Of a stretch of 30,942 nt of DNA, positions 10,589 through 30,942 are shown piece after piece. A program made the translations under genes and the position numbers. Origin of the DNA: Trichoplax sp. H2 (Eukaryota); NCBI GenBank assembly GCA_003344405.1, contig NOWV01000186.1, positions 124,001-154,942 of the forward strand. Reading direction: 5' to 3'. How positions within the stretch are numbered: the stretch's first letter is position 1; the number at the start of each line of letters is the position of its first letter. The notes under the pieces are model-generated. The model was not told the DNA's origin and ran no database searches. It was given only the letters and a program-made list of their open reading frames with translations.

Positions 10589-13500
10589 ATGTCTGATATT
10601 GAAGAATCACAAGAGGAATGTACACAATCTCCGCCAGAGGAATGTACAGGTACTACGTAGTGCATTTATACTGAACTGTCTGAGTATTTACACTTTGCAA
10701 ACAGTAAACGATGCTCATTTCGTTAAGGTTAAGAGCAAGGTTTGCAAAAATCAGTCTACTACATGTTGATTAGAGAGGACATGACAGTACGTGATTAGCA
10801 GTTTAATAATTATCGTTACAACAGGATATTTACTATAATATCATGTGGCAGAATCATGACAACATGATATACACTGTATATTATACAGTAGAGTCATGAT
10901 TTCTACTAGAAAAATTCTACAATAGGCTGTTATGAGAGATAATTATGGCTTACCTAAATTAGGTTACATTAACCATCAATCATTTGTTAATAAATTGAAT
11001 ACGATTTTAATATCCTAAACTGTTCGATCATGTATATAGTAAAGTGTGTGATCTTACGCACTGATCATTAACTAAATTACTACATAAAAGGTTTTCGCTA
11101 TCGACTGCTCACTGGTAAATTAACCACTGTCCAATAAAATAATCTCTACGTTATTTCTTGATGGTAGATGGCCACAATTAAAATAGACATGGACTACTAG
11201 ATGCACTTACCTAGTAGTCCATGGTATAGACTACAGTTTTATACTTCGCAGGAGCGGTTTTTTCCTCAACTGATTACGTATTTTATTGATAGATCAATCA
11301 TCAACAGTTGAAGCTTCGGAATTAACTGCAGAAGATACAAGCGATAAATTTGATGACAATGAACAACCTCTAGAAGAAGAACAGGTATCTTCCGAAGAAG
11401 CAGCGACTACTGAAGAACAAATAAATGAAGAACATGATGTATCCGAAGAAGCAGTCGAGGTTGAAGCGGAAGAGGAATCCCCAAATGAAGATTTAACGCA
11501 AACAGACGTTGCTGGAGAATTGGAACAACCTGTTCCTCAAGATTCTTGTGAAACTGCAACTTCTGTTGAACAATCGGATGAACATCAACAGAACGGCACA
11601 GTATCGAGTGAGTTCGTAGCTGCTGAAGAAGAGAACAATAATGAAGCTACTGAAATAACTAACGAAGATCAATCACCAACGGATCAAGTTAATACTGAAG
11701 ATTTAACAGAAAATAATTTATCGGATGAACCACTAGTAGTCTCTGAAGAGTCAGAGGTTCAAGAACTTTCTGAAGATTCGACCGAGGAACAAATTCCCTC
11801 TGAATCTGCAAGGGCAGATATTGAAGAGAAATTACCTGTCGAAGAAACAACTGAGGCTGTAAGCAATGAAGGGCAAATATCTTCAATGGAATCAACCGAA
11901 GATGTCAAAATTGACGAGGTATCTGATGAAGAAAAAGCTATAGAAGATGAGGGACAAACACCTGTTGAAGATGCTGATGAAATCCTAGAAAAAAATGAAG
12001 AAACTATAGAACAGATACCGGATGAAGAAACAGCTGAAGTTGTCAAAGTTGAAGAAGAAGTACATTCAGAAGAATCGGCTGAAGCTACAGAAACGAAAGA
12101 ACATATATCTAGTGAAGAAGCAACCGAAATAGTAGAAGTTGCGGAACCTTCGAAAGAATTGACTGAAGCTACAGAAGCGGAAGAGCATATATCTGATGAA
12201 GCAACTGAAATTGTAAAAGCTGAAGAACAAGCACCTTCGGAAGAACCAACTGAAGCTACAGAAATTAAAGAGGATGCATCTGATGAAGAAGCGGAAGAAC
12301 CGGCTGAAGTCGTACAAGCAGAAGAACAAATAACGTCAGAAGAACCAGCTGAAATTGTAGAAGCTGAAGAACAAATAACTTCAGAAGAACCAACTGAAAT
12401 CGTACAAACTGAAGAACAGATAACTGCAGAAGAACCAACTGAAACCTTAGAAGCACAAATAACTTCAGAAGAACCAGCTGAAATTGTAGAAGCTGAAGAA
12501 CAAGTAATTTCAGAAGAACCAGCTGAAATTGTAGAAGCTGAAGAACAAATAACTTCAGAAGAACCAGTCGAAGTTATAGAAGCAGAAGAACAGACACCTA
12601 GTGAAATAGACGAAACCACAGAACGAATACCTTCAGAAGAGTCAGCTGAAGCTGTAGAAACCGAAGGACAGCTATCTGGTGATGAAGTAGCCATCATTTC
12701 GGAGCCAACACTAGCTAAAGAATCAGGAGAAACTACAGAAATCGAAGTACAAGCAAATGATAAAGAAATACCCGAAGCTGCAGAAGACAAAAGGCAGACT
12801 CCATCATCCGAAGTCATAGAAGATCAAGAACAGATATCCTATGAAGAAACGATTAAAGCTACAGAAAGTGAGGTAGCTGCTGAGGAATTGCATGAAAATC
12901 TTGAATCTGAAGAACAGGTACCCGTATCTAGTGAACTAACAACGGAAGTTGTGGAACCTGAAGAACAAGCACCTAAGGAGGAATTAACCGAAGCTGCAGA
13001 AACTGAAGAACAGATAGCTGTATCTAGTGGAGAAATAACTGAAGCTGCAGAACCTAAGGAACCAGTTGAGGTTGCAGAGACTGAAGAAATGGTACCTGTA
13101 TCTAGTAAAGAAATAGCTGCAGTTGTGGTACCTGAAGACCAAACACCTGAGAAAGAATCTGTTGAAATTATAGAAATTGAAGAACAGACACCTACGGAAG
13201 AATCAACTGAGACTGCAGAAATTGAAGAACAAGTACATACAAAAGAATCAGCTGAAGTTATTGAGATTAATGAACAATTGTATGATGAAGGAGCTACTGA
13301 AGAACCAGCTGAAGAGGTAGAACTTAGTAAAGAAACAGCTCCTGTAAAATCGTCTGAGGTGATAGACTCTGAAGAACAAACACTTCCTAAAGAAGCCATT
13401 GAAGAGCCAGTCATGGTTACAAGTGAGATACAGCCTGAGGATGAGCAAGGCAGTCAAGAAGTGACAACGGTGGCTGATAATAACAAACAAATGGAAGTAA

Positions 13501-14406
13501 ACGAAATTAAGGCTGAAGAAACAGTTGAGACTTCATCTCGTCAGCAGTTATCAGACGTAAATAGTAATGATAATGATAAAGAAGTGACAATAAATGGAAA
13601 GACAGACTCATTGGTCGTAGGTAAAAAATTATTATTTAAGACCGTATAATGAAATTTGAGCAGATAGTAGAATTACTATTTTACTAGCTTGTATGATAAC
13701 TATCGATGTCGTTTTAAAAAGAATAAGGGTCAATGTAGAAATTTTAAGTCTTGATAGCTTCACGACTTTACGTCACTAAACTTAGAATGAAATTGAACTT
13801 TTTTTCGTTTAGTCCTCGTATTAAAAATTTTAGTTTCTAAAATCTCTACAGCTCTTCGCAATAATACGTGTAAACACAGACTTTAGCGGTGTTTTAGGCT
13901 TCAATGAAGGCAGATACGTAGGATAAAAAATGGCTATATTCTTAATCGTTTATCTATTAGTAGCAAAAGAATCACAGTCTGCAGATCACAAGACAGCTAC
14001 TACGATATCAAAAGCTAATAAAGAGCACTCACCTCAATCTGTGGCAACAGCAGGTAGATTATCTAGAATTTATAACATTTAGAAATTGCTATTACGTAAA
14101 GTAATATTACTGTCGCCTTTCCGATTGAAGGCTTTTACACTCACTCTTATAAGATGATTCTATTTTGTTGATGTCAATTCTCAGATGCTAGAAATCTGAA
14201 TTATTTATGTCCTATGACACTTCACTAACAAACACTTATGATATTGTCTGTCACTGCTCTTAAATCATGAAGATTCGAGAGAGAAAAATACAGATTCACA
14301 GGAATCAGGTGCTACTGGTTACCAAAAACGAGAGAAAACACCCAGCAAATCTAGAAGAAAATCCATTAAGAAAGCATTTGTAAAATTATTTAAAAGATCG
14401 CAATAG
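10589..14406 (+). CDS. Glu-rich, low-complexity repetitive protein of unknown function (~871 aa) with basic amphipathic C-terminus
   Basis: Phase-1-compatible exons 10589-10649 (MSDIEESQEECTQSPPEECT), 11293-13620 (bulk of the 787-aa ORF), 13961-14053 and 14273-14406 (ends SRRKSIKKAFVKLFKRSQ*). The large exon is secure. The terminal exon uses an AAG acceptor; an alternative CAG acceptor at 14184 would give a different short tail. Confidence 0.8.
12295..12602 (+). repeat. coding 45-bp (15-aa) tandem repeat EEPAEIVEAEEQITS, ~7 well-conserved copies with degenerate copies on both sides
   Basis: EEPAEVVQAEEQITS / EEPAEIVEAEEQITS / EEPTEIVQTEEQITA / EEPTETLEAQITS / EEPAEIVEAEEQVIS / EEPAEIVEAEEQITS / EEPVEVIEAEEQTPS. 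Confidence 0.9.
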
Positions 14407-15577: not shown

Positions 15578-15990
15578 TAAAAGGAAGTTTTTTGAATCAT
15601 TGCGCGATGCAGAGTCGTAGAGTTCTACGAATCATGCACTACCTCTAAATCCTACAGGATCAGCAGTCCATGAACCAATATACTCTATGCATTAGCTACT
15701 ACAATATATCGTCAAGCAGTAAAAAGGAGCTCTTGAATCGTTATACGATACAGAATTGTAGAGTTCTACAAATCATGCATCACCTCTAAATGCTACAGGA
15801 TTAGCAGTCCATAGACCAATATACCCTATGCATTAGCTCCTGCAATAGATCGTCAAACAATACAGTAAAAAGGAACTTTTAAATCGTTGCATGATATAAA
15901 CTTGTAGAGTTCTATAAGCGTTAGCTACTACTGTACACGGTCAAACAGCAAATAGAGCTTTTAAATCGTTGCACAACACAGAATTCTACC
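15578..15990. repeat. ~141-146-bp tandem repeat, 2 full copies plus truncated copies
   Basis: gtagagttcta at 15617, 15758 and 15904. Shared aatcatgca..acctctaaat.ctacaggat.agcagtccat..accaatatac.ctatgcattagct in the first two copies. Confidence 0.85.
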
Positions 15991-16728: not shown

Positions 16729-17093
16729 GAGATTTCGGCCTCATTTGGAAGAAAGAGTCTGTCCGTCCGCACCGTGTCCATGCCATACAGTTAAGAGACT
16801 TAACTCTATAATACTGTACAGTGTACAGTATGGCCCAGTCCGATGATGAGATTTCGGCCTCATTTGGAAGAAAGCGTCTGTCCATCCGCACCGTGTCCAT
16901 GCCATACAGAGACTTAACTCTACAGTACTATACTGTACAGTGTACAGTACAGTACAGTACTGTATGGTCCAGTCCGATGATGAGATTTCGGCCTCATTTG
17001 GAAGAAGGAGTCTGTCCATCCGCACCGTGTCCATTCCATACAGTTAAGAAACTTAACTCTACTGTACAGTGTACAGTATGGTCCAGTTTGATG
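16729..17093. repeat. palindrome-rich tandem repeat, 3 copies (119 and 134 bp spacing), upstream of CTR9 copy 1
   Basis: gagatttcggcctcatttggaagaa.g.gtctgtcc.tccgcaccgtgtccat.ccatacag starts at 16729, 16848 and 16982. Units differ mainly in the number of (tacag/tactg) subunits. Confidence 0.95.
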
Positions 17094-17303: not shown

Positions 17304-17347
17304 ACGCATGCGCGATAATTCTACCTCTAAAAATCAAAATGGCTGGA
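17304..17347 (+). promoter_or_regulatory. putative CTR9 proximal promoter motifs: NRF1-like site and YY1/Kozak-like motif at the start codon
   Basis: acgcatgcgc at 17304-17313 (GCGCATGCG core on the minus strand); caaaATGGCtgg at the start codon, mirrored by caaaATGGCtgcc in copy 2. Motif match only. Confidence 0.35.
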
Positions 17348-20300
17348 ACGACTTCTGTTGAGATTCCTTTACACGATTCCGATGAGGTAAACGAGTAATT
17401 TTGCTTAATTATGATTCCAACGACCTCGATTTTACCTTTTATTCTTCGATCTGTCTTTCATGCCAATGCTATTAGTCGTAGCAGTAACAAGAACGACAGA
17501 ATACGATTCCGTTATTCTAATGTTTGAGAATGTAGTCAACACGAATGGATGCATATTGTATCAACGCAGTAATGCGGTTTCAGTCATCAAAATTAGCATA
17601 GTCTAAACTAGTCTAAACATCAGTTTTGAATTGCTTATTTACACTATACTAGATTGATTGTGTACTAATAGAAAGCTATCTTTTGCAATGCACGGATTAA
17701 AGTCCTCATTTTGTAGCTGGAGTTTATTTAAAACATAGACAATGTCATTCAACCGGTTACATACTGTACAACTCCCCATGATAGGTAATCGAATTGGATT
17801 TCGATCAACTTCCTGATGGTGGTGAATGCCTCGCAATCCTGAAAGAAGAAAGACCCCAACTTCGTATATGGAATGTTCTAGCTGTAAGTAGGATTGATTT
17901 AGTTGATCGAATGGTGATATACGACAACATTGATCTTATCCTACCCATAATTGCGTAACATTTTTACAAGTTTTCGTTGATTCTTCATGCAATTGACGTA
18001 CTGTATTCTCAGCAATTTGTTGTGAAACGTTTTCCTCCTTACCTTACTTGTTTACAAGATTAAATCCTCTTTTGTTTATCATTGCATATGTGCAGCAACA
18101 GTATTACAAACTAGGAGAGCAAGATGCTTTCTTGTCTATGTTGGAAACTGCTACGACAGGTTAGTAAATTGCTGTGTTATACTGTAAATGCCCTTTGTCT
18201 CCTTGTGTTTGTAATAGTATGGATTAATGATGCGTTCATAAATGGCAGAAGCGACAATGAGCTACGACGATAGCGATAAAGACTTGATGACAACTTTAGA
18301 TAGTTTAGCCAACTACTACGTAGAATTGGGCAAAAAAGCAAATAATAAAGATCTAACGAGAGATTATTTTGCCAAGGTTGGGTTGCATTACACTGTATAG
18401 TGTATATCTTGATTAATTAAAAATTCATTTTTGGCAATAGTTATTAGTGCTATAATTTTTCTACAAGCGGCTCAGAATTCATAAACTAAAAATTTCGCTT
18501 ATATTTACTAAATGAATATCTACTGTTAAATTACTTGTGTAGGCCGCTCAATTGTTTGGTAAAGGCGACAAAATTATCATGCATCACGAGGTTATTTCTT
18601 GTTTCTCATCGGCAAATAATTTGCGTATTCATCGATCGCTAGAATTCAGCGTCATTGAAATAATTCCACAATCTATCACTATAATCTCATTGTTTCTATT
18701 TGTTTCTATTTTAATTGATATTAAAATCGTGATTGATGAGATGTGTGTAATAATAGGGGCATTTAGTAAGTCGTGGATGTTTTTACCTGGCTGATGGAAA
18801 ATTGGAACAAGCTGAAACACAATTCAATTTCGTTCTGACGCAAGTAAATTCATAGCATAGTAATGATATTGATATTATTGGTCTTTAGGTTACACCCATG
18901 TCTTACTAAAAGCAGTAATAGCGGTGCAATATATTAAACTATGTTATTATTACCCTTCCCTTATTCCAGTTAAACAAGCAAAATCCTCCAGCCTTATTAG
19001 GTATTGTTATGCTGGATAATATGAATGCCTTCATATTTATACTGTAAAAATGGTCAATTAAATTTACTTGCATGCCGGAAAAATTTTTATTACTATAGGC
19101 AAAGCTAGTATACTTTTCAGTCGAAAGGATTATAACGGTGCTCTTAGCCTATATAAAGAAGTTTTAAAATTAAAGCCGGAGACATGTCGAGGTGTTAACG
19201 TGTATCACTTTTGATACTTGAATACCGTATTGTTTTGTATGCAATCGATATGTTAACACCCGCTTTATTATCAACTTTACAGCTGATGTTCGTCTAGGAA
19301 TTGGACATTGCTATGCAAAGCTAAACAAACTCAACTTGGCAAGGTAAGCCTGAGTCTTTAACCACATTTACTGATCTCATGAGATATACATAAAGTGGCA
19401 CAGTTGCTAAAGTATAACCAATAAACGTTATAATAATGCTATTATCTTTTATATATTTTCACTGACAAAAAATTTCGTAGGCGAGCATTCGAAAGAGCAT
19501 TACAACTCGATCCTAGATGTGTTGGAGCGATGGTTGCTTTAGCTGTTTTGGAACTGAACAATAACAGGGTAAATGCAATAGTTCTATTTTATTTACGGTT
19601 AATTCAAATTCAAATTTGCTAATTTCGGTAATGACAAATTTAGAAACGATAATATACATGATAAGTTTGATATGATGCATAAATGTGCAGTATTTACACT
19701 TAACATTTAAAAATTTTTTATAGGCTGAATCTATTAGGAATGGGGTTGATTTATTATCACGTGCTTATACAATCGATCAAACAAACGCTATGGTGTTGAA
19801 TCACCTAGCCAACCATTTCTTCTATAAAAAAGATTTTAATAAAGTTCAACATTTAGCTCTACATGCTTTCCATAGTACGAACGTCGAACCTATCCAAGCC
19901 GAAAGCTGCTATCAACTAGCTAGAGTTTTCCATTCGATGCAAGATTACGATCAAGCTTTTAAATATTATTATCAAGCTACTCAATTTGCCGATAGTAATT
20001 ACGTTTTACCACATTTTGGTCTAGGCCAATTATATCTTACTCGTAACGATTCAGCTAATGCGGCTAGTTCATTTGAAAAAGTACTTAAAGTCCAGAGTGA
20101 TAACTATGAAAGTATGAAAATTTTAGGATCTATATATGCACGCTCTAATAACGAAGAAAAGCGAGAAAGAGCTAAAATTTTATTACAAAAAGCAACCACT
20201 CAACATCCTGACGACATAGAAGCTTGGATTGAATTAGCAGGTATACTAGAAGGTTCAGATATTCAAGGGGCACTTTCAGCATATGGTACATCTTCACGAC

Positions 20301-23252
20301 TTTTACAAGAGACTCTTGAAACCGATATACCTCCAGAAATATTAAACAATGCAGCTGCATTACACTTCCAGTTAGGTAATTTTTTAGAAGCTATGAAAAA
20401 CTTTAGTGCCGCATTGGAACGAGCTAAATTAGAAGCAAACGAATCAACCGAAGGTTCATCTTATTTCAATACTATATCAGTTACTATAACATATAACGTC
20501 GCTCGTTTACACGAAGCATTGTGTGAACATGATGAAGCAGAAAAGTTATATAAGCAAATCCTTAAAGATCATCCTAATTATATCGATTGTTATCTTCGAT
20601 TGGGATGTATGGCTCGCGATAAGGGTCACTTTTATGAAGCTTCAGATTGGTACACCGAAGCACTTGTTATAGAAAGGGAGCATAAAGATACATGGTCTTT
20701 AATTGGAAATTTACACATGATGAAGCAAGAATGGGGTCCGGCCCAGAAAAAGTACGAGCGTATTTTAAATCAAAACAAAGACGATACTTACGGTCTTGTA
20801 GCTATGGGAAATATATGGTTACAGACATTATATCAACCTACAAAGGACCCAGACAAGGTTTTAAAAATCGCGAGTTGTAATGAAATATTAATACCTACTG
20901 TATTTTAATAAGAGCCATATTGATGTTACTTATTTTTTATATTATACTAGAATAGACGTCATCGCGATCGCGCGTTGAGTCTATATAAGCAGGTAATTCG
21001 ACTCGATCCACGAAATATTTATGCCGCTAATGGTATCGGTGCCGTATTAGCACAGAGTAGTTTTCATCAAGAATCTCGAGAAATTTTTGCTCAGGTAGAT
21101 TAATATAGAATTATTGATTTGTAATTTAATAAGTTTACAAAGTTTTGAAGTTAATATACAATGTATTACTGTACTTTTAATAGGTCCGCGAAGCTACTGC
21201 CGACATGTTCGACGTATGGCTAAATCTCGCTCATGTTTACACTGAACAGAAGCAATATTCGACAGCAATTCAAATGGTACTCAATAATTTAGCATTGCTA
21301 TATCGAGTTTGATAGTGACGAAGATGAAAATTAGTGTCATTTTAGTATTGCGAAAATTTAACCAGCTATGTGATGTAATTTCTTTTAGTATCAGAACTGT
21401 ATCAAGAGGTTCGGAAAGAATCAAAGTACGGAAGTACTGCTATATCTAGCTAGAGTATTCTTTAAGGATGGTAGATTACAAAATTGTAAAAGTGCTCTTG
21501 TTAAGGTAATAAACAATTGCTCGATCATGTTTGTACAATGCAATTGCTATAGATTCGAAATTGTAATAGCCTTTGACGCTTTTAAAAATAATGGATTAAA
21601 ATTTAATTACAACCTTAGGCCTGCCACGTTGCCCCGCAGGAAACCCTACTCTTGTTTGACGTTTGCTTAGTCTTACAGCGTATAGCAACAGTTTCTCTAA
21701 AAGATGAAAATAGTAACCTCAAGGACGTTCAAGAAGCTGTTGATCAACTAAAATTAGCTCACAGGTGCTGCCATTGAGTAAAAATAATTCTTACATGATG
21801 TAATTGCTAACGATTCTTAAATTTACAGATACTTTACATTTTTGAGTAAAGTCGGAGACAAATCGAAATTCGATCTTAATCAGGCTCAATTGGAAGCACG
21901 GTATAGTTTATAATAAATACAGTGTATAGAATTAATATTGGTGTCAGTAATTAAGAAAATCCTTTCTTTTACTTGGTATCACAGCCAATGTGTAGATCTA
22001 TTAAGCCAGGCTAAGTATCATGTGTCCAGGGCAAAGAAGAAGCAAGATGAAGAACTTGAATTAATTCGTAAGCAGGAGGAAGAACACCAAGCCTATCTAG
22101 AGAAAAGAAAGGCTGAAGAGGTTGGTTTGATTACCGTGAACCACATTCTAGTTTGTTGCCAAGAGTAATTTAAATGTTCAAATAGATACAACGCCAAAAA
22201 GAAGAGGAAGTAAAGAACAAGTCCATTAATGAAAAACGTAGCCAATTTATTGAAGCGACCAAGAAACTCTTAGTTTTTGAAGCGGATACTTCTAGTGCTG
22301 CGAAAATTTCGGGTCGCCGAGCTAAGGTATGAATACTTTAGATAATGTAGCTCGAGCTCATATAACTGTTGTCCGATGCAGATACTGTATGTAACGTTAA
22401 ATAATTTTATTGCTCTTGATCAAAGAAACAAGATGACGATTTCATAAGTGATGGAGAGCAGAGTGAAGAAGACGTTACTGAACCTAAGCCTAAACGGTAT
22501 CTTCTAAGTTTAATTTTAATCTATTTGTGTAAGTATTTAGGCGATTAATATTATTTTATGCTCATAATAGCAAAAAAGCGAAAGACAAAGGTGTTCGAGT
22601 CAAAAAACGACCGCGAAAACGTAAAGCACCGGCTGCAGTCAAGGAAAGGTCTGCCAGAAAAAAACGTAAAGCTATTTCAAAAGAAATTATTTCGGATATC
22701 TCAGATAGTTCTGACGCTGATGACTCCGGACAGTTACATATTGTTGGTGAAGATGAGTGAGTTTTAATGACGTTAATGATATGAATTAAAAAGTTGATAT
22801 TATAGCTGCCTTAGATTTTACCTTAGAAAGAAGATGCTTGTGCTAAATCTTTTCCTATTTCTGTGTATATAATAAATAGAGAGGAATCAGATAAATCTAA
22901 TCTTTCGGATGAAAAGGAAGCAAGCTTTTCTGAAGAAGAAGATGAAGATGATGATGAAGTAGATTTTTCGCCACCGAAGGAAACTTCTACCAAGAGAAAG
23001 CAACGTAATATGATAGCAGAAACGGTGGATGAATCAAGCTTGTTAGGTGATGAAGACGAAAATGTAGCACCATCTGTTAGAAAATCTCTTAGGGCAACTA
23101 CAAATGCATTATTCTCATCTTCGTAAGTATCATTATAAAATATCGAATATTTTCTTTATACCTTCGGCTAATATTAATTTGTAGTCGTATTACTGAAGAT
23201 AAGTTGGTAATGTTATATTATGCAATGCATTTACTTTAGGGATGAGGATTAA
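17339..23252 (+). CDS. CTR9: RNA polymerase II-associated PAF1 complex subunit CTR9 (TPR scaffold), copy 1, 1080 aa
   Basis: 22 GT-AG exons with consistent phase: 17339-17386, 17785-17883, 18096-18159, 18249-18376, 18543-18590, 18757-18843, 18970-19000, 19099-19191, 19283-19343, 19481-19568, 19724-20857, 20951-21094, 21184-21276, 21389-21505, 21619-21764, 21829-21900, 21985-22120, 22186-22326, 22426-22496, 22571-22756, 22880-23122, 23240-23252 (3243 nt). CTR9 hallmarks: [98 protein letters not shown], and an acidic/basic disordered tail. Confidence 0.96.
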
Positions 23253-24878: not shown

Positions 24879-25165
24879 TTAGGCGGATTACTCCAGTCTA
24901 CCGTTGAGCTTTTTTTTCTCCTTTACTCATAATAATTTACAATTAACAGAATCCCGTCTTACTTGTATAGTGCTTTTGTATTTAATTATCGGAATATTAG
25001 CCCATTCGACTTTTAAATAAATTATATTAGGCGGATTGCTCTAGTCTACCGTTGAGCTTTTTGCTCCTTTGCTCATAATAATTTGCAAGTAGCAGAATCC
25101 CGTCTTACTTGTATAGTGCTTTTGTATTTATTTGTCGGAATACTAGCTCATTCAACTTATAAATC
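24879..25165. repeat. 148-bp tandem duplication (2 copies)
   Basis: ttaggcggatt.ctc.agtctaccgttgagc starts at 24879 and 25027; identical core cagaatcccgtcttacttgtatagtgcttttgtattta. Confidence 0.9.
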
Positions 25166-25394: not shown

Positions 25395-26510
25395 GGGTAG
25401 AAGCCATTTTATTGCAATTTTTTACAGTCAATCCAATTGTAGGCCAAGTGAATCAAACGGTAGAAGGCATTTTAATGCTCAATATCGAATTTATTCATCA
25501 TAAAGACAATTTTTGGATCAATAATATAATGTAACTTTTTTTATAGTTAATCCGGTAGAGTATGGTAAACTAAGCAGGTTCTACTGTTTTACAGTAAAAT
25601 ACAAAAATAGATTGAGCAGGGGCCAGTAAGTGAAAGAAATGGATTAAGTAGACCAAATGGTATAAGGCATTTTATTGCCCAATTTTTCAATGATCTACAG
25701 TCACTTTTCTAGTTATTCTAATGGTAGTCAAAACGGACCAGTAAAGAAAGGAATGGACTAAGTAGATCAAATAGTATAAGGTATTTGATATCCCAATTTT
25801 TCAATGATCTACAGTTAATCTGTTGCACTGTAATGGTAGACAAAGCAGACCCGTCAATGAAAGAAATGGACAAAGTCTATCAAATAATTTAAGGCATTTT
25901 ATTGCCCAATTTTCAATGGTCTACAGTCACTTTTTTTTTATTGTTAATCTAATGAGAGACAGAGCAGACCAGTAAAAGAAAGAAATGGACTAAGTCGATC
26001 AAATAGTATAAGGCATTTTATTGCCTCATTTTTCAATGGTCAACTTTCACTTTTTTTACAGTTAATCTACAGTCATGGTAGACAGAGCAGACCAGTAAAA
26101 GAAAGTAGTGGATCAAGCGAGCCAAATCCTAGGTACAATTGATTTGATTCGGTATAAGCAATAAGGTATTTCAATCTGTTGTACTGTAATGGTAGACAAA
26201 GTAGACCAGTAAATGAAAGAAATGGTCTAAGTCGATCAAATAGTTTAAGGCATTTTATTGCCTCATTTTTCAATGGTCAACTTTCACTTTTTTTTACACT
26301 TAATCAACAGTAATGGTAGACAGAGCAGATCAGTAAAAGAAAGTAGTGGATCAAGCGAGCCAAATCCTAGGTACAATTGATTTAGTTCGGTATAAGCAAT
26401 AAGGAATTTCATTGCAACCATTTTGGATCAATAATTATAATTAATTAATTATTAATACTGTATAATCAGTTTTTTTTTACACTTAATCCAATATGGAGGA
26501 CCAAGCAGAA
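25395..26510. repeat. ~112-124-bp tandem repeat array (>=7 units) with A/B higher-order structure, upstream of CTR9 copy 2
   Basis: Units beginning aatggtag.ca.agcagacca-like at 25720, 25832, 25951, 26074, 26188 and 26312, with degenerate units from ~25395. Units at 26074 and 26312 share gtagtggatcaagcgagccaaatcctaggtacaattgattt. Confidence 0.9.
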
Positions 26511-26874: not shown

Positions 26875-29800
26875 ATGGCTGCCGTCAACTACATTGAAAT
26901 CCCCTTACGTGATTCAGATGAGGTAAATGATTGCTGTAATTTAGCTCTTTCATTATTGTAGAGGTGTTTGTACTTATGTTCTATCTCGGTGAATGCATCG
27001 TATACGTATTAGAGATGCATTGAATAAAATATATCAGAAAAGGTTGAAATTTTCCGATACTGGATGTCATTCAATTTTGGAGAGTTATAGAATAATTATA
27101 ATTCAATTCGTTCATAGTACATTCTATGCAGTCAACGGTATAGAATGATCCATACTTTAGCTACAGCTATGCATTCATCATAGTAATTTGGAAGTGGCTT
27201 TCTCTTATAATGGTAGACCTTCGTTCTCACTTCCCGTCCATCGATCTATCTACGGTATCTTGATCGATTGATCATCCTGTACCAACCACGAAAGAGTATA
27301 CGAGTATCCTATAGAAACATTGTAATGGATGTTCAACAGGTTTACAATCTACAAACACAAAATCATCCACGTCCATTACTAGCCAACTTGTACGATTACA
27401 GTACTGTAGATCAAAAATACCTGGTGAAATACGAATTTCTAACTAACAACGCGGCATTAAGAAAACTCTCTCTTTTATCCGAAAGTGAAACCGTGTATTA
27501 TTAACTATTCTGCAGCATTACCTTAGCAACCGTTAGTGTAAAGTTAGTCGACAAACTGTAGGGATTCATGAGCACACTTTAGAAAATCAACATAATGTAT
27601 CTCAATACGGCACTATGTACTAAGAAAATTGTTCCACGTATACGCGTTGATCATAGTTTGTGGACTAGACATAACCTTGGAAAGGCAGCTTTAGCCAACT
27701 TTGAAAGGAAGTTATTTTACAACTGTAGGTATTCATTATTACGTTACTGTACTTTCTATGTATCTGAATGTATTTTAACCAGATGAGAATAATAGAGAAA
27801 TTGTAATAAGTCTCCATATATTAGCTCATTACGCTTCTATGATATGTATATGTATTATATCACATATACGAATATATGTATACGTTGGTATAGCCATAAA
27901 ACTGCCAAAGAAGCTTATTGTAATTATTAACTGTAGGTATTGATTGCTATTTTACACTCTATGCATTTTAATCAACTTTAAAGTATTACTCGTATGTGCA
28001 AAATGAGAATGATAAATATCAGCTCAGATGTCTCCATATGGCTGTAATCTTACAGTATATCAATATAGGTGTATTATAATGGAGTTCTAGTATTTATTGT
28101 AGTTTTAAATTGCCAACCTAATGTAGCTTGATCTTGCAATTGTAGCCATTTTGCTCAACTATACAAGTCGTATCTGTTGCAGCTCATGGTTCGTAAACGT
28201 GAGAGCAACATACAATTGCCATACTTTATAAATATTGTAATGCACATGCAACGTATTTATAATATCCGATTGATTGTACGTCCATAGTGCGCGCATTTCT
28301 GCGTCGGTAGTACAATGTAATTCTTACTATAGCAGCTTCTAATGCGGTTTTACTTTACAGCAGTAGATTTTGGGTTATTTCGTTTTAACCATAATAGTTA
28401 ATCCATCAGAATCGAAATAAAGAATATATAGTATTTATTAAATACATTGCAATTATATGGAATAAGCCTATAATCTCCGTCAACTGATCTATGTGCGGTA
28501 TACTTGTTTAGTAAGACTACATTTTTAAACATATTATTCCAATCTGTAAAAATTGAATAGGTCATCGAATTAGACCTTAATCAGCTTCCTCATGGTAACG
28601 AATCGTTGGCAATCTTAAGAGAAGAACGGCCCCAATTGCGTATATGGAACATCCTTGCTGTATGTATGAGTTATTCATTGGATGGCAATTGCCCATTTAC
28701 ATCTCGTTCTGATAGTGTTAGCCACACAGATCTCATTACTTGATATAAATCTGTTACCGCTATTATTATCATAGATAATAACGTGTAGTTATAATTTATA
28801 CTTGAACGGCAAGTGAATTAGACGCGTATATATACAGTATATTAATGTTATCCAACGGGAATACCTTTAGCAACAATACTACAAGCACGGTCAGCAAGAT
28901 GCATTTTTATCCGTATTAGAAGCCGCTGTTGAGGGTAAGTCTCAATGCTATTACTAATTTTGAAGGAATAGTATGCAGCAACATCACGTCTTTATCAATA
29001 TATCGAATAACAAAGTTAAACATATTAATAATTGCATTAAATGTATCCCATACGTTAACTAATTTTTTGGCTAATGGCAGAGGCAGTAGTAGACTATCCT
29101 GATAGTGATCGAGACTTGATGACATCATTGGATAGCTTGGCAAATTATTTTGTTGAACTAGGCAAGAAAGCTAGTAATAAAGACCTTACTAGAGAGTTTT
29201 TCGGAAAGGTTTGTTTAGTATTTATACTGCAACCATACGAGTTCGCCCAGTTTTTAAGGGCTAATTTTCTTAATTCATTTTGCTAAGGTGTATGACAGCA
29301 TTGAAATCCTAACTTAAAAAAATGGCCTTTTTAAATTAAATTTTATATAGTATTAATGAGATGATTGCAATCTTTGATTACCTGTGTAGGCTGCCCTACT
29401 GTTTAGTAAAGGCGATAAAATCATCATGCATCACGAGGTTATTGATAGCTACTAATATCGTATATAAACTGAATCGTTCATTTGCTAGTTTAAAAAAGCG
29501 TAAAAATGACTCACAGTTTGCAAACAATGCATTTCGGAAATATACAGTAGATAACCTTATATTGTAATTCTTTTAATCCATTAACTAAATTATTAAATTC
29601 CTATACAAACTTTGCCAAAGGGCCATCTCGTAAGCCGAGGGTGGTTTTATTTAGCTGATGGAAAATTTGAACAGGCCGAAGCACAGTTTAATTTCGTTTT
29701 AACCCAAGTATGACTATTAAGCATATACGCCGAGTGAATATGCATCACGTATTTATCTTATTGTTTCTATTTACTTGTAAAACACATAATTAAATCATCT

Positions 29801-30942
29801 GGACTAGACTAATTTTTATTATGTTCCTATCCCTTATAGCTGAATAAAAAGAACCCACCAGCATTACTAGGTCGTGAAGTAAAAATGATAGATTTCGAAA
29901 AGTTTAATATTATACACTGAATACTCAGAATTTTATGCCTTACTTTAATCAAAAAGATTTTCAAATTCACCTCGATATCTAATTCTATGTGCAGGCAAAG
30001 CTACTATACTATTTAATAGGAAAGACTACAATGAAGCTCTAAACCTATACAAAGAAGTCTTGAGATTGAAACCAAAGACATGTCCAGGTACTAGATCAGC
30101 TACAATTGTAAAAATTTTAGAGTTAGCAAACGAAATTGTTACTGCATTAATCAATTAAGAATTGACCTTTGAAATTGCAGCAAATGTTCGTCTAGGAATT
30201 GGCCATTGCTATGCAAGATTGAATAAATTTGATTTAGCCAGGTTGTCAATAGTAAAAGAGTTATATCGTAAATGATAGTAAGATAGTAAAGGAAAACAAG
30301 TTGTTTGGTTGATGTGGTTGTAAATAGGTGCATCATTACTATGGTATATAGACAGTGTACCATCTGCTTAACTTTTTTATACTAAAAGGAGGTTGTTGAC
30401 TGAACGTCATTAATATAATTCTTAAGACAAGCATTTGAAAGAACATTACAGCTCGATCCTAAATGTGTCGGAGCAATGGTTGCCTTGGCTGTTTTAGAAT
30501 TAAACACAAAAGTGGTATATATCCCGATTTAAACCCTTTATACTGATGATATCATAAAGTTTTAAAAGGAAAAAGTAGCACGTTGTGTTAAAATTTTTTT
30601 AGTATTCATTTTTGTTTCCTTATACTGTGATATTATTGAAATATTGACAGATTGATTTGATTTTAAATATCTAGGCTGATTCCATCAGAAATGGAGTCGA
30701 TTTATTATCACGTGCTTATACAATCGATCAAACAAACGCTATGGCTTTAAATCATCTTGCAAATCATTTCTTCTACAAGAAGGATTATGATAAGGTTCAG
30801 CATTTAGCTCTACATGCTTTCCATAGTACGAACGTCGAACCTATCCAAGCCGAAAGCTGCTATCAACTAGCTAGAGTTTTCCATTCGATGCAAGATTACG
30901 ATCAAGCTTTTAAATATTATTATCAAGCTACTCAATTTGCCG
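26875..30942 (+). CDS. CTR9: CTR9 paralog, copy 2 (tandem duplicate), 5' part; runs off the window in exon 11
   Basis: Exons 26875-26922, 28561-28659, 28871-28934, 29081-29208, 29390-29437, 29621-29707, 29840-29870, 29995-30087, 30181-30241, 30427-30514 and 30675->30942. Exons 1-10 have the same lengths (48, 99, 64, 128, 48, 87, 31, 93, 61, 88) and phases as copy 1, with no stops or frameshifts. Starts [26 protein letters not shown]. Confidence 0.93.

Follow-up and report, generated by a model that had tools for sequence, protein, structure and literature searches.

The window analysed in this study, a stretch of 30,942 nt from Trichoplax sp. H2, harbors two tandem CTR9 paralogs, both on the + strand of one genome and 10.95 kb apart, as expected of a potential donor and acceptor in interlocus gene conversion. 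The two genes, here called copy A and copy B, appear to be old duplicates at both ends but share an identical block in their middle, and non-allelic (interlocus) gene conversion is probably the best explanation of this block. An earlier note on this DNA had proposed the same process, and given the statistics of the identical tracts, the saturated flanks, and the excess identity of the core, it is also the reading that we prefer.

Based on sequence matches, both genes are predicted to encode CTR9, which serves the Paf1 elongation complex as its TPR scaffold subunit. In copy A, exon 11 aligned with all of its 378 residues to residues 248–624 of human CTR9 (PDB 6TED/7OOP; E ~1e-181) and revealed Pfam TPR matches, including TPR_1, TPR_2, and TPR_8. 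The nearest database proteins were P0002, annotated as "CTR9-like, partial" from Trichoplax sp. H2, and P0001, followed by vertebrate CTR9 proteins with 69% identity as the best further matches; the named homologs retrieved were overwhelmingly CTR9. Thus, the match to the human structure together with the TPR domains bears out the earlier assignment of two CTR9 paralogs. The likeness to human CTR9, as known from Pol II elongation complexes (PDB 6TED, 7OOP, 6GMH), comprises the exon 11 alignment, the TPR repeats, and a full-length copy A, while the Trichoplax genome differs in having two copies.

Exon models were built from AG/GT boundaries conserved between copies A and B, leading to the following gene features:

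17339–23126, + strand: CTR9 copy A, complete gene with 21 exons and 1077 aa, the splice choice for exons 19–21 being predicted
19724–20857, + strand: exon 11 of copy A, 1134 bp, the sole long exon
26875–30942, + strand: CTR9 copy B, exons 1–10 and 268 bp from the start of exon 11, running off the window

In copy A, every intron is of the GT-AG type, the reading frame is open, and exons 1–18 match the database protein P0001 at 903 of 910 residues. The other 20 exons measure 31–250 bp, in agreement with the earlier description of exon 11 as the only long one. Copy A displays a full-length CTR9 architecture including a charged C-terminal tail. The 911 aa model P0001 looks truncated in comparison, the copy A model adding three putative exons (19–21) that lie outside the P0001-matched part to reach 1077 aa. 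The ten small exons of copy A are all found in copy B, where the frame is open, the introns are of the GT-AG type at conserved sites, and exon 11 starts at 30675. Open frames and conserved splice sites are found in both copies, and therefore both look selected. As further details of the gene models, the start codon context (aaATGGCTG) and the exon 1 donor (GATGAG/gtaaa) are kept in both copies, intron 1 measures 398 nt in copy A (17387–17784) and 1638 nt in copy B (26923–28560), and the end of P0001 ("...RRAKV") corresponds to a read-through of the exon 18 donor (AAG/gtatga, window 22326–22332).

Direct comparison of the beginning of exon 11 in both copies revealed two identical tracts interrupted by a diverged island:

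30675–30698, + strand: unconverted 5' start of exon 11 in copy B, 6 differences in 24 nt, third positions only
30699–30744, + strand: tract 1, 46 bp in which copies A and B agree fully (P ~0.003–0.008)
19748–19793, + strand: counterpart of tract 1 in copy A
30745–30800, + strand: unconverted island with copy-B-specific bases, 14 differences in 56 nt, i.e., background-level divergence
30801–30942, + strand: tract 2, 142 bp without a difference from copy A, truncated at the window edge (P ~2.5e-12)
19850–19991, + strand: counterpart of tract 2 in copy A

Both tracts lie at a constant offset of 10951 bp between the copies, and tract 2 reaches the last base of the window. The differences in the island are distributed over 11 third, 2 second, and 1 first codon positions. 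Coordinates and counts of the earlier note (identities of 46 bp and 142 bp, 14 differences in the 56 bp between them, mostly at third positions) were found to be exact. The 5' edge of the continuous block, i.e., of tract 2, is located 126 nt inside exon 11 and thus off the exon boundary. The identical DNA directly visible amounts to 188 nt, the extent 3' of 30942 being read from the protein P0002 only.

The aligned coding sequence comprised 1015 nt and 214 differences, and its longest identical runs measured 142, 46, 19, 17, and 14 nt. When the differences were permuted (20000 permutations), a run of 142 nt was reached in none and a run of at least 46 nt in 0.28%. Silent sites led to the same picture: among codons of exons 1–10 that encode the same amino acid in both copies and have a degenerate third base, 95 of 191 differ, resulting in a probability of ~2.5e-12 for the identical run of 46 codons and of ~0.008 for that of 14 codons. 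In the manner of GENECONV, identity including silent sites was thus significantly higher in the tracts than in the rest of the alignment. Since tracts with zero differences flank an island at background divergence, this is a true mosaic and not a gradient of constraint. The sharp edges and the synonymous identity claimed previously hold, both in the run statistics and in the diverged island.

The remainder of the two genes is old. In exons 1–10, 553 of 747 nt are identical (74%) with a third-position identity of 51%, and the Nei-Gojobori pS of 0.79 is saturated, so that the heavy silent-site divergence reported before for these exons was found again. The CTR9 duplication is ancient, since neutral sites are saturated. 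A dN of 0.125 next to a saturated dS indicates that copy B is likely under purifying selection. Comparison of the copies via blastn resulted in exon blocks only, with 73–93% identity. Eight of the nine introns tested (introns 2–10) fell within 2 sd of shuffled controls, including intron 10 directly 5' of exon 11, which revealed chance similarity (z = -1.6). The one intron above chance was intron 6 (18844–18969 and 29708–29839), with 67% identity compared to 60% in shuffled sequences (z = 3.4). On the 5' side of the block, the old divergence is therefore seen at the DNA level, namely in exons 1–10, the introns, the first 24 nt of exon 11, and the island.

Selection on the nucleotide sequence itself, be it for an embedded RNA, for a gene on the antisense strand, for a splicing element, or through extreme codon preference, might in principle also keep silent sites identical, and tract 2 does encode the most conserved part of the protein, with 38 of 47 residues equal to shark and starfish CTR9. 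Equally conserved flank residues nevertheless use different codons (the 95 of 191 given above), the 56 bp island lies at background divergence within the same conserved region, and the block at the protein level spans about 400 codons. An Rfam search of the whole window gave 0 matches, no alternative-frame or antisense ORF longer than 72 aa was found under the tract, and fold z-scores of the tract (-0.48 to +0.73) resembled those of control windows (-0.44 to +1.51), folding being no more stable than in these or in shuffled sequences. On these Rfam, ORF, and folding results, an embedded RNA or overlapping gene under the tract was rejected, and nucleotide selection as a whole is hardly credible as the cause of the block.

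For the part of copy B beyond the window we used P0002, which apparently is its continuation. Protein searches for copy B detected only P0001 and P0002 as placozoan CTR9 clusters, and no protein longer than 157 aa with the N-terminus of copy B was found in them. The two clusters contain 2 and 3 sequences, respectively, of which one A-type and one B-type sequence were compared. P0002 starts with the residues encoded from window position 30885, i.e., 84 nt after the start of tract 2 and 58 nt short of the window end. Its assignment to copy B is based on a C-terminus that is not of the A type, on the lack of any further placozoan CTR9 cluster in these searches, and on an overlap of 19 residues by which A and B cannot be told apart.

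Between P0002 and copy A, 307 of 308 residues agree in exon 11, 48 of 48 in exon 12, and 29 of 31 in exon 13, where both are identical up to aa 697 and differ first at aa 698 and 702. In exons 14–20, identity falls to 35–72%. The single difference inside the block is Q465R. Along the entire protein, identity between A and B is 196 of 249 residues in exons 1–10, 38 of 42 at aa 250–291, 47 of 47 (copy B of the window) and 377 of 378 (P0002) at aa 292–697, and 133 of 210 at aa 698–910. The old divergence on the 3' side is hence a protein-level observation via P0002 (133 of 210 after aa 697), taken as copy B. In coordinates of copy A, the maximum block is as follows:

19850–21249, + strand: maximum homogenised block, 1400 bp, as deduced at the protein level; it starts within exon 11 and reaches 66 nt into exon 13, with exon 12 and introns 11 and 12 in between

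Since P0002 matches through exons 11–13, the block would cross introns 11 and 12 and end inside an exon of 93 bp. A block of up to 1.4 kb would follow, with presumably neither edge at an exon boundary, and introns 11 and 12 may have been co-converted in copy B. Two parts of the earlier proposal find no support here. It had confined the conversion to exon 11, but the identity of P0002 runs through exon 12 into exon 13, and the 5' edge lies inside exon 11. It had also explained the pattern by exon length, with a long homogenised exon and diverging micro-exons, but the contrast is one between the core and both flanks, the C-terminal exons being about as diverged as the N-terminal micro-exons (63% and 79% amino acid identity, respectively).

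The core is also the better conserved part among animals, with 64–68% identity to CTR9 of shark, starfish, and snail compared to 43–55% in the flanks. If its residues had diverged like equally conserved sites of the flanks, 97.1 differences would be expected among 406, but 1 was seen (Poisson P ~7e-41). Therefore, constraint does not explain the identity of the core.

A further alternative is an assembly artefact, in which a short-read assembler merged reads of both paralogs by haplotype merging, repeat collapse, reference-guided extension, or polishing, so that the real copy B would be more diverged within the block. According to those sections of the genome paper that we draw on, the Trichoplax sp. 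H2 assembly behind P0002 was generated from 2x150 bp reads only, with 500 bp inserts, using MaSuRCA with a utgErrorRate of 0.03 "to better merge haplotypes", and its scaffolds were then extended with AlignGraph, guided by the other Trichoplax genome; the published genomes are 99.1% identical to each other (PMC6057997). Such read and insert lengths, the merge tolerance of 3%, and the extension along a reference all speak for an artefact: an assembly of this kind cannot phase a near-identical repeat of 1.4 kb and could erase a real difference of up to about 3%. Moreover, the position one read length from the window end (30942 - 150 + 1 = 30793) directly precedes 30794, which with 30800 forms the last pair of copy-B-specific sites, and the partial model P0002 starts 84 nt into this same tract 2. 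The right edge of the window may thus be a scaffold end inside an unresolved repeat.

Merging, however, needs near-identity, and the background divergence of about 25% at the nucleotide level and 50% at synonymous codons is far above the 3% tolerance. Nor would collapsed reads account for two perfect tracts separated by 56 bp with 14 differences; a genuine long identical repeat is likewise expected to interrupt a scaffold within the tract, and P0002 keeps one difference from copy A in the block (Q465R). In addition, reads anchored in copy B can support tract 2, because a single 150 nt read can link each of its 142 bp to B-diagnostic bases. Altogether, we regard an artefact as unlikely, though the "perfect" identity is secure only to about 97%.

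Unequal crossing-over, by two reciprocal exchanges or by re-duplication of the central segment, would leave the same appearance of old flanks and a young core, and it can act on tandem direct repeats such as these, 10.95 kb apart. A single unequal crossover would produce a hybrid gene with one old flank and a changed copy number, but both flanks of copy B appear to be of the B type (the 5' flank in the window, the 3' flank via P0002). Two exchanges 1.4 kb apart are operationally the same as conversion, and the additional 46 bp patch would need still more of them, so that this origin of the block appears very unlikely. Conversion templated by a spliced transcript, i.e., by cDNA of one copy, would suit a block that spans exons 11–13 at the protein level. 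Introns 11 (93 nt) and 12 (89 nt) are present in copy A, which was therefore not the recipient of a cDNA conversion across them; furthermore, DNA-templated conversion explains the data without the extra step. We give the cDNA route next to no weight.

Under interlocus gene conversion from DNA, a break in one CTR9 copy would have been repaired with the neighbouring paralog as template, the repair copying sequence in one direction without exchange of the flanks. The 46 bp patch and the 56 bp island would then stem from two distinct events or from a single heteroduplex whose mismatches were repaired patchily. Outside the block, the longest identical run shared by A and B measures 19 nt, which in view of general homology requirements would not suffice to initiate conversion; the block would thus be the only conversion substrate left. 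As the only part with enough uninterrupted identity to convert again, it would probably have been maintained by repeated events; both the repair mechanism and this recurrence are what we infer. A signature of GC-biased conversion was not seen (GC3 of 0.28 in the tract vs. 0.34).

A more far-reaching idea, which we consider rather doubtful, is that recurrent, ongoing mitotic conversion in a largely clonal animal keeps a shared central TPR module of about 1.4 kb, with diverged N- and C-terminal parts. If true, Trichoplax would possess two scaffolds for the Paf1 complex that share their core and differ at their ends, a patch of seven residues described below would represent a conversion that postdates the split between the closest Trichoplax lineages known, and the locus would be a natural gauge of the rate of somatic or clonal conversion in placozoans.

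This patch was detected when copy A was compared with P0001:

20039–20383, + strand: patch aa 355–469 in copy A, 7 residues different from P0001

Outside the patch, P0001 and copy A show 0 differences in 795 residues, inside 7 in 115 (Fisher P = 4e-7). At six of the seven sites, copy A of the window carries the residue of P0002. At the remaining one, aa 465, copy A has Q (CAG, 20369–20371), P0001 has K, P0002 has R, and five outgroups all have R; a single base change leads from CAG to AAG (K) or to CGG, an arginine codon. Compared to the five outgroups, the polarity of the patch is mixed, P0001 keeping the outgroup residue at aa 459 and the window at aa 359, and for this reason we name no donor. 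The patch would fit a further, more recent exchange between A and B in one lineage, and likewise a closer kinship of the two paralogs within than between species in the tract. It could also be a phasing error of the short-read assembly, as its assignment to copy A or B is not secure with such reads, which counts in favour of the artefact. With P0002 compared at the protein level, codon 465 may possibly be a chimeric consensus.

Interlocus conversion is well known from human gene pairs such as the gamma-globin genes HBG1/HBG2, the red/green opsins, and RHD/RHCE. Its rates and tract lengths are the subject of a review (PMC3924818). The CTR9 pair resembles other tandem duplicates with interlocus conversion in its close paralogs of the same orientation, a sharp block including silent sites, apparently old flanks, and patchy boundaries. 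It differs from the textbook cases in being a normally single-copy housekeeping gene in a placozoan host, and in its unusually high background divergence with saturated silent sites, to which the extreme contrast between core and flanks is due. For human interlocus conversion, the consulted part of one preprint gives a mean tract of about 250 bp, with detected tracts averaging 880 bp and partly representing clustered events, and the CTR9 tract size is within this usual range (bioRxiv 10.1101/135152).

A model for tandem paralogs, in which exon/intron structure and divergence-dependent conversion lead to mosaic divergence, was described for HMA4 of Arabidopsis halleri, where purifying selection keeps exons convertible and introns escape (bioRxiv 10.1101/2025.10.29.685298). 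As far as the excerpts of this preprint go, it is the general form of the exon-length idea of the earlier note, which is thus already in print (bioRxiv 10.1101/2025.10.29.685298). On the same excerpts, the HMA4 copies are young and show a mosaic of exons versus introns, whereas in CTR9 the duplication is old, most exons escaped too, and one homogenised block would include two introns. In our literature search, no paper with both "Trichoplax" and "CTR9" was found, and among the matches listed for Trichoplax and gene conversion, none dealt with conversion of placozoan paralogs, as judged from titles and the openings of abstracts. The CTR9 case thus extends a known process to another gene and phylum and reveals no new mechanism. 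It is a statistically extreme example of concerted evolution limited to the middle of a gene. In practical terms, whole-gene trees or dS would date the duplication of the core falsely young, short-read assemblies would break at the CTR9 block, and copy B is present in the protein database only as a partial model.

Several other features were observed in the window. An ORF of 791 codons (11274–13649, + strand) is very glutamate-rich and consists of degenerate tandem repeats of 45 bp (15 residues) with super-periods of 87 and 129 bp; a Pfam search with it gave no match. On the - strand, an ORF of 149 codons (1902–2351) revealed a patatin-like phospholipase domain (PF01734, E = 8.7e-9) and probably represents one exon of a neighbouring gene. 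The spacer between the CTR9 copies carries tandem repeats at 24879–25164 and 25623–26411, with periods of 146 bp and 114–119 bp, respectively (the latter with a 238 bp super-unit, 93% matches), which have no counterpart upstream of copy A. Further short tandem arrays are located at 218–481, 1012–1304, 15605–15914, and 16729–16949, with periods of 71, 134, 141, and 119 bp, respectively, the 71 bp array lying near the left edge of the window.
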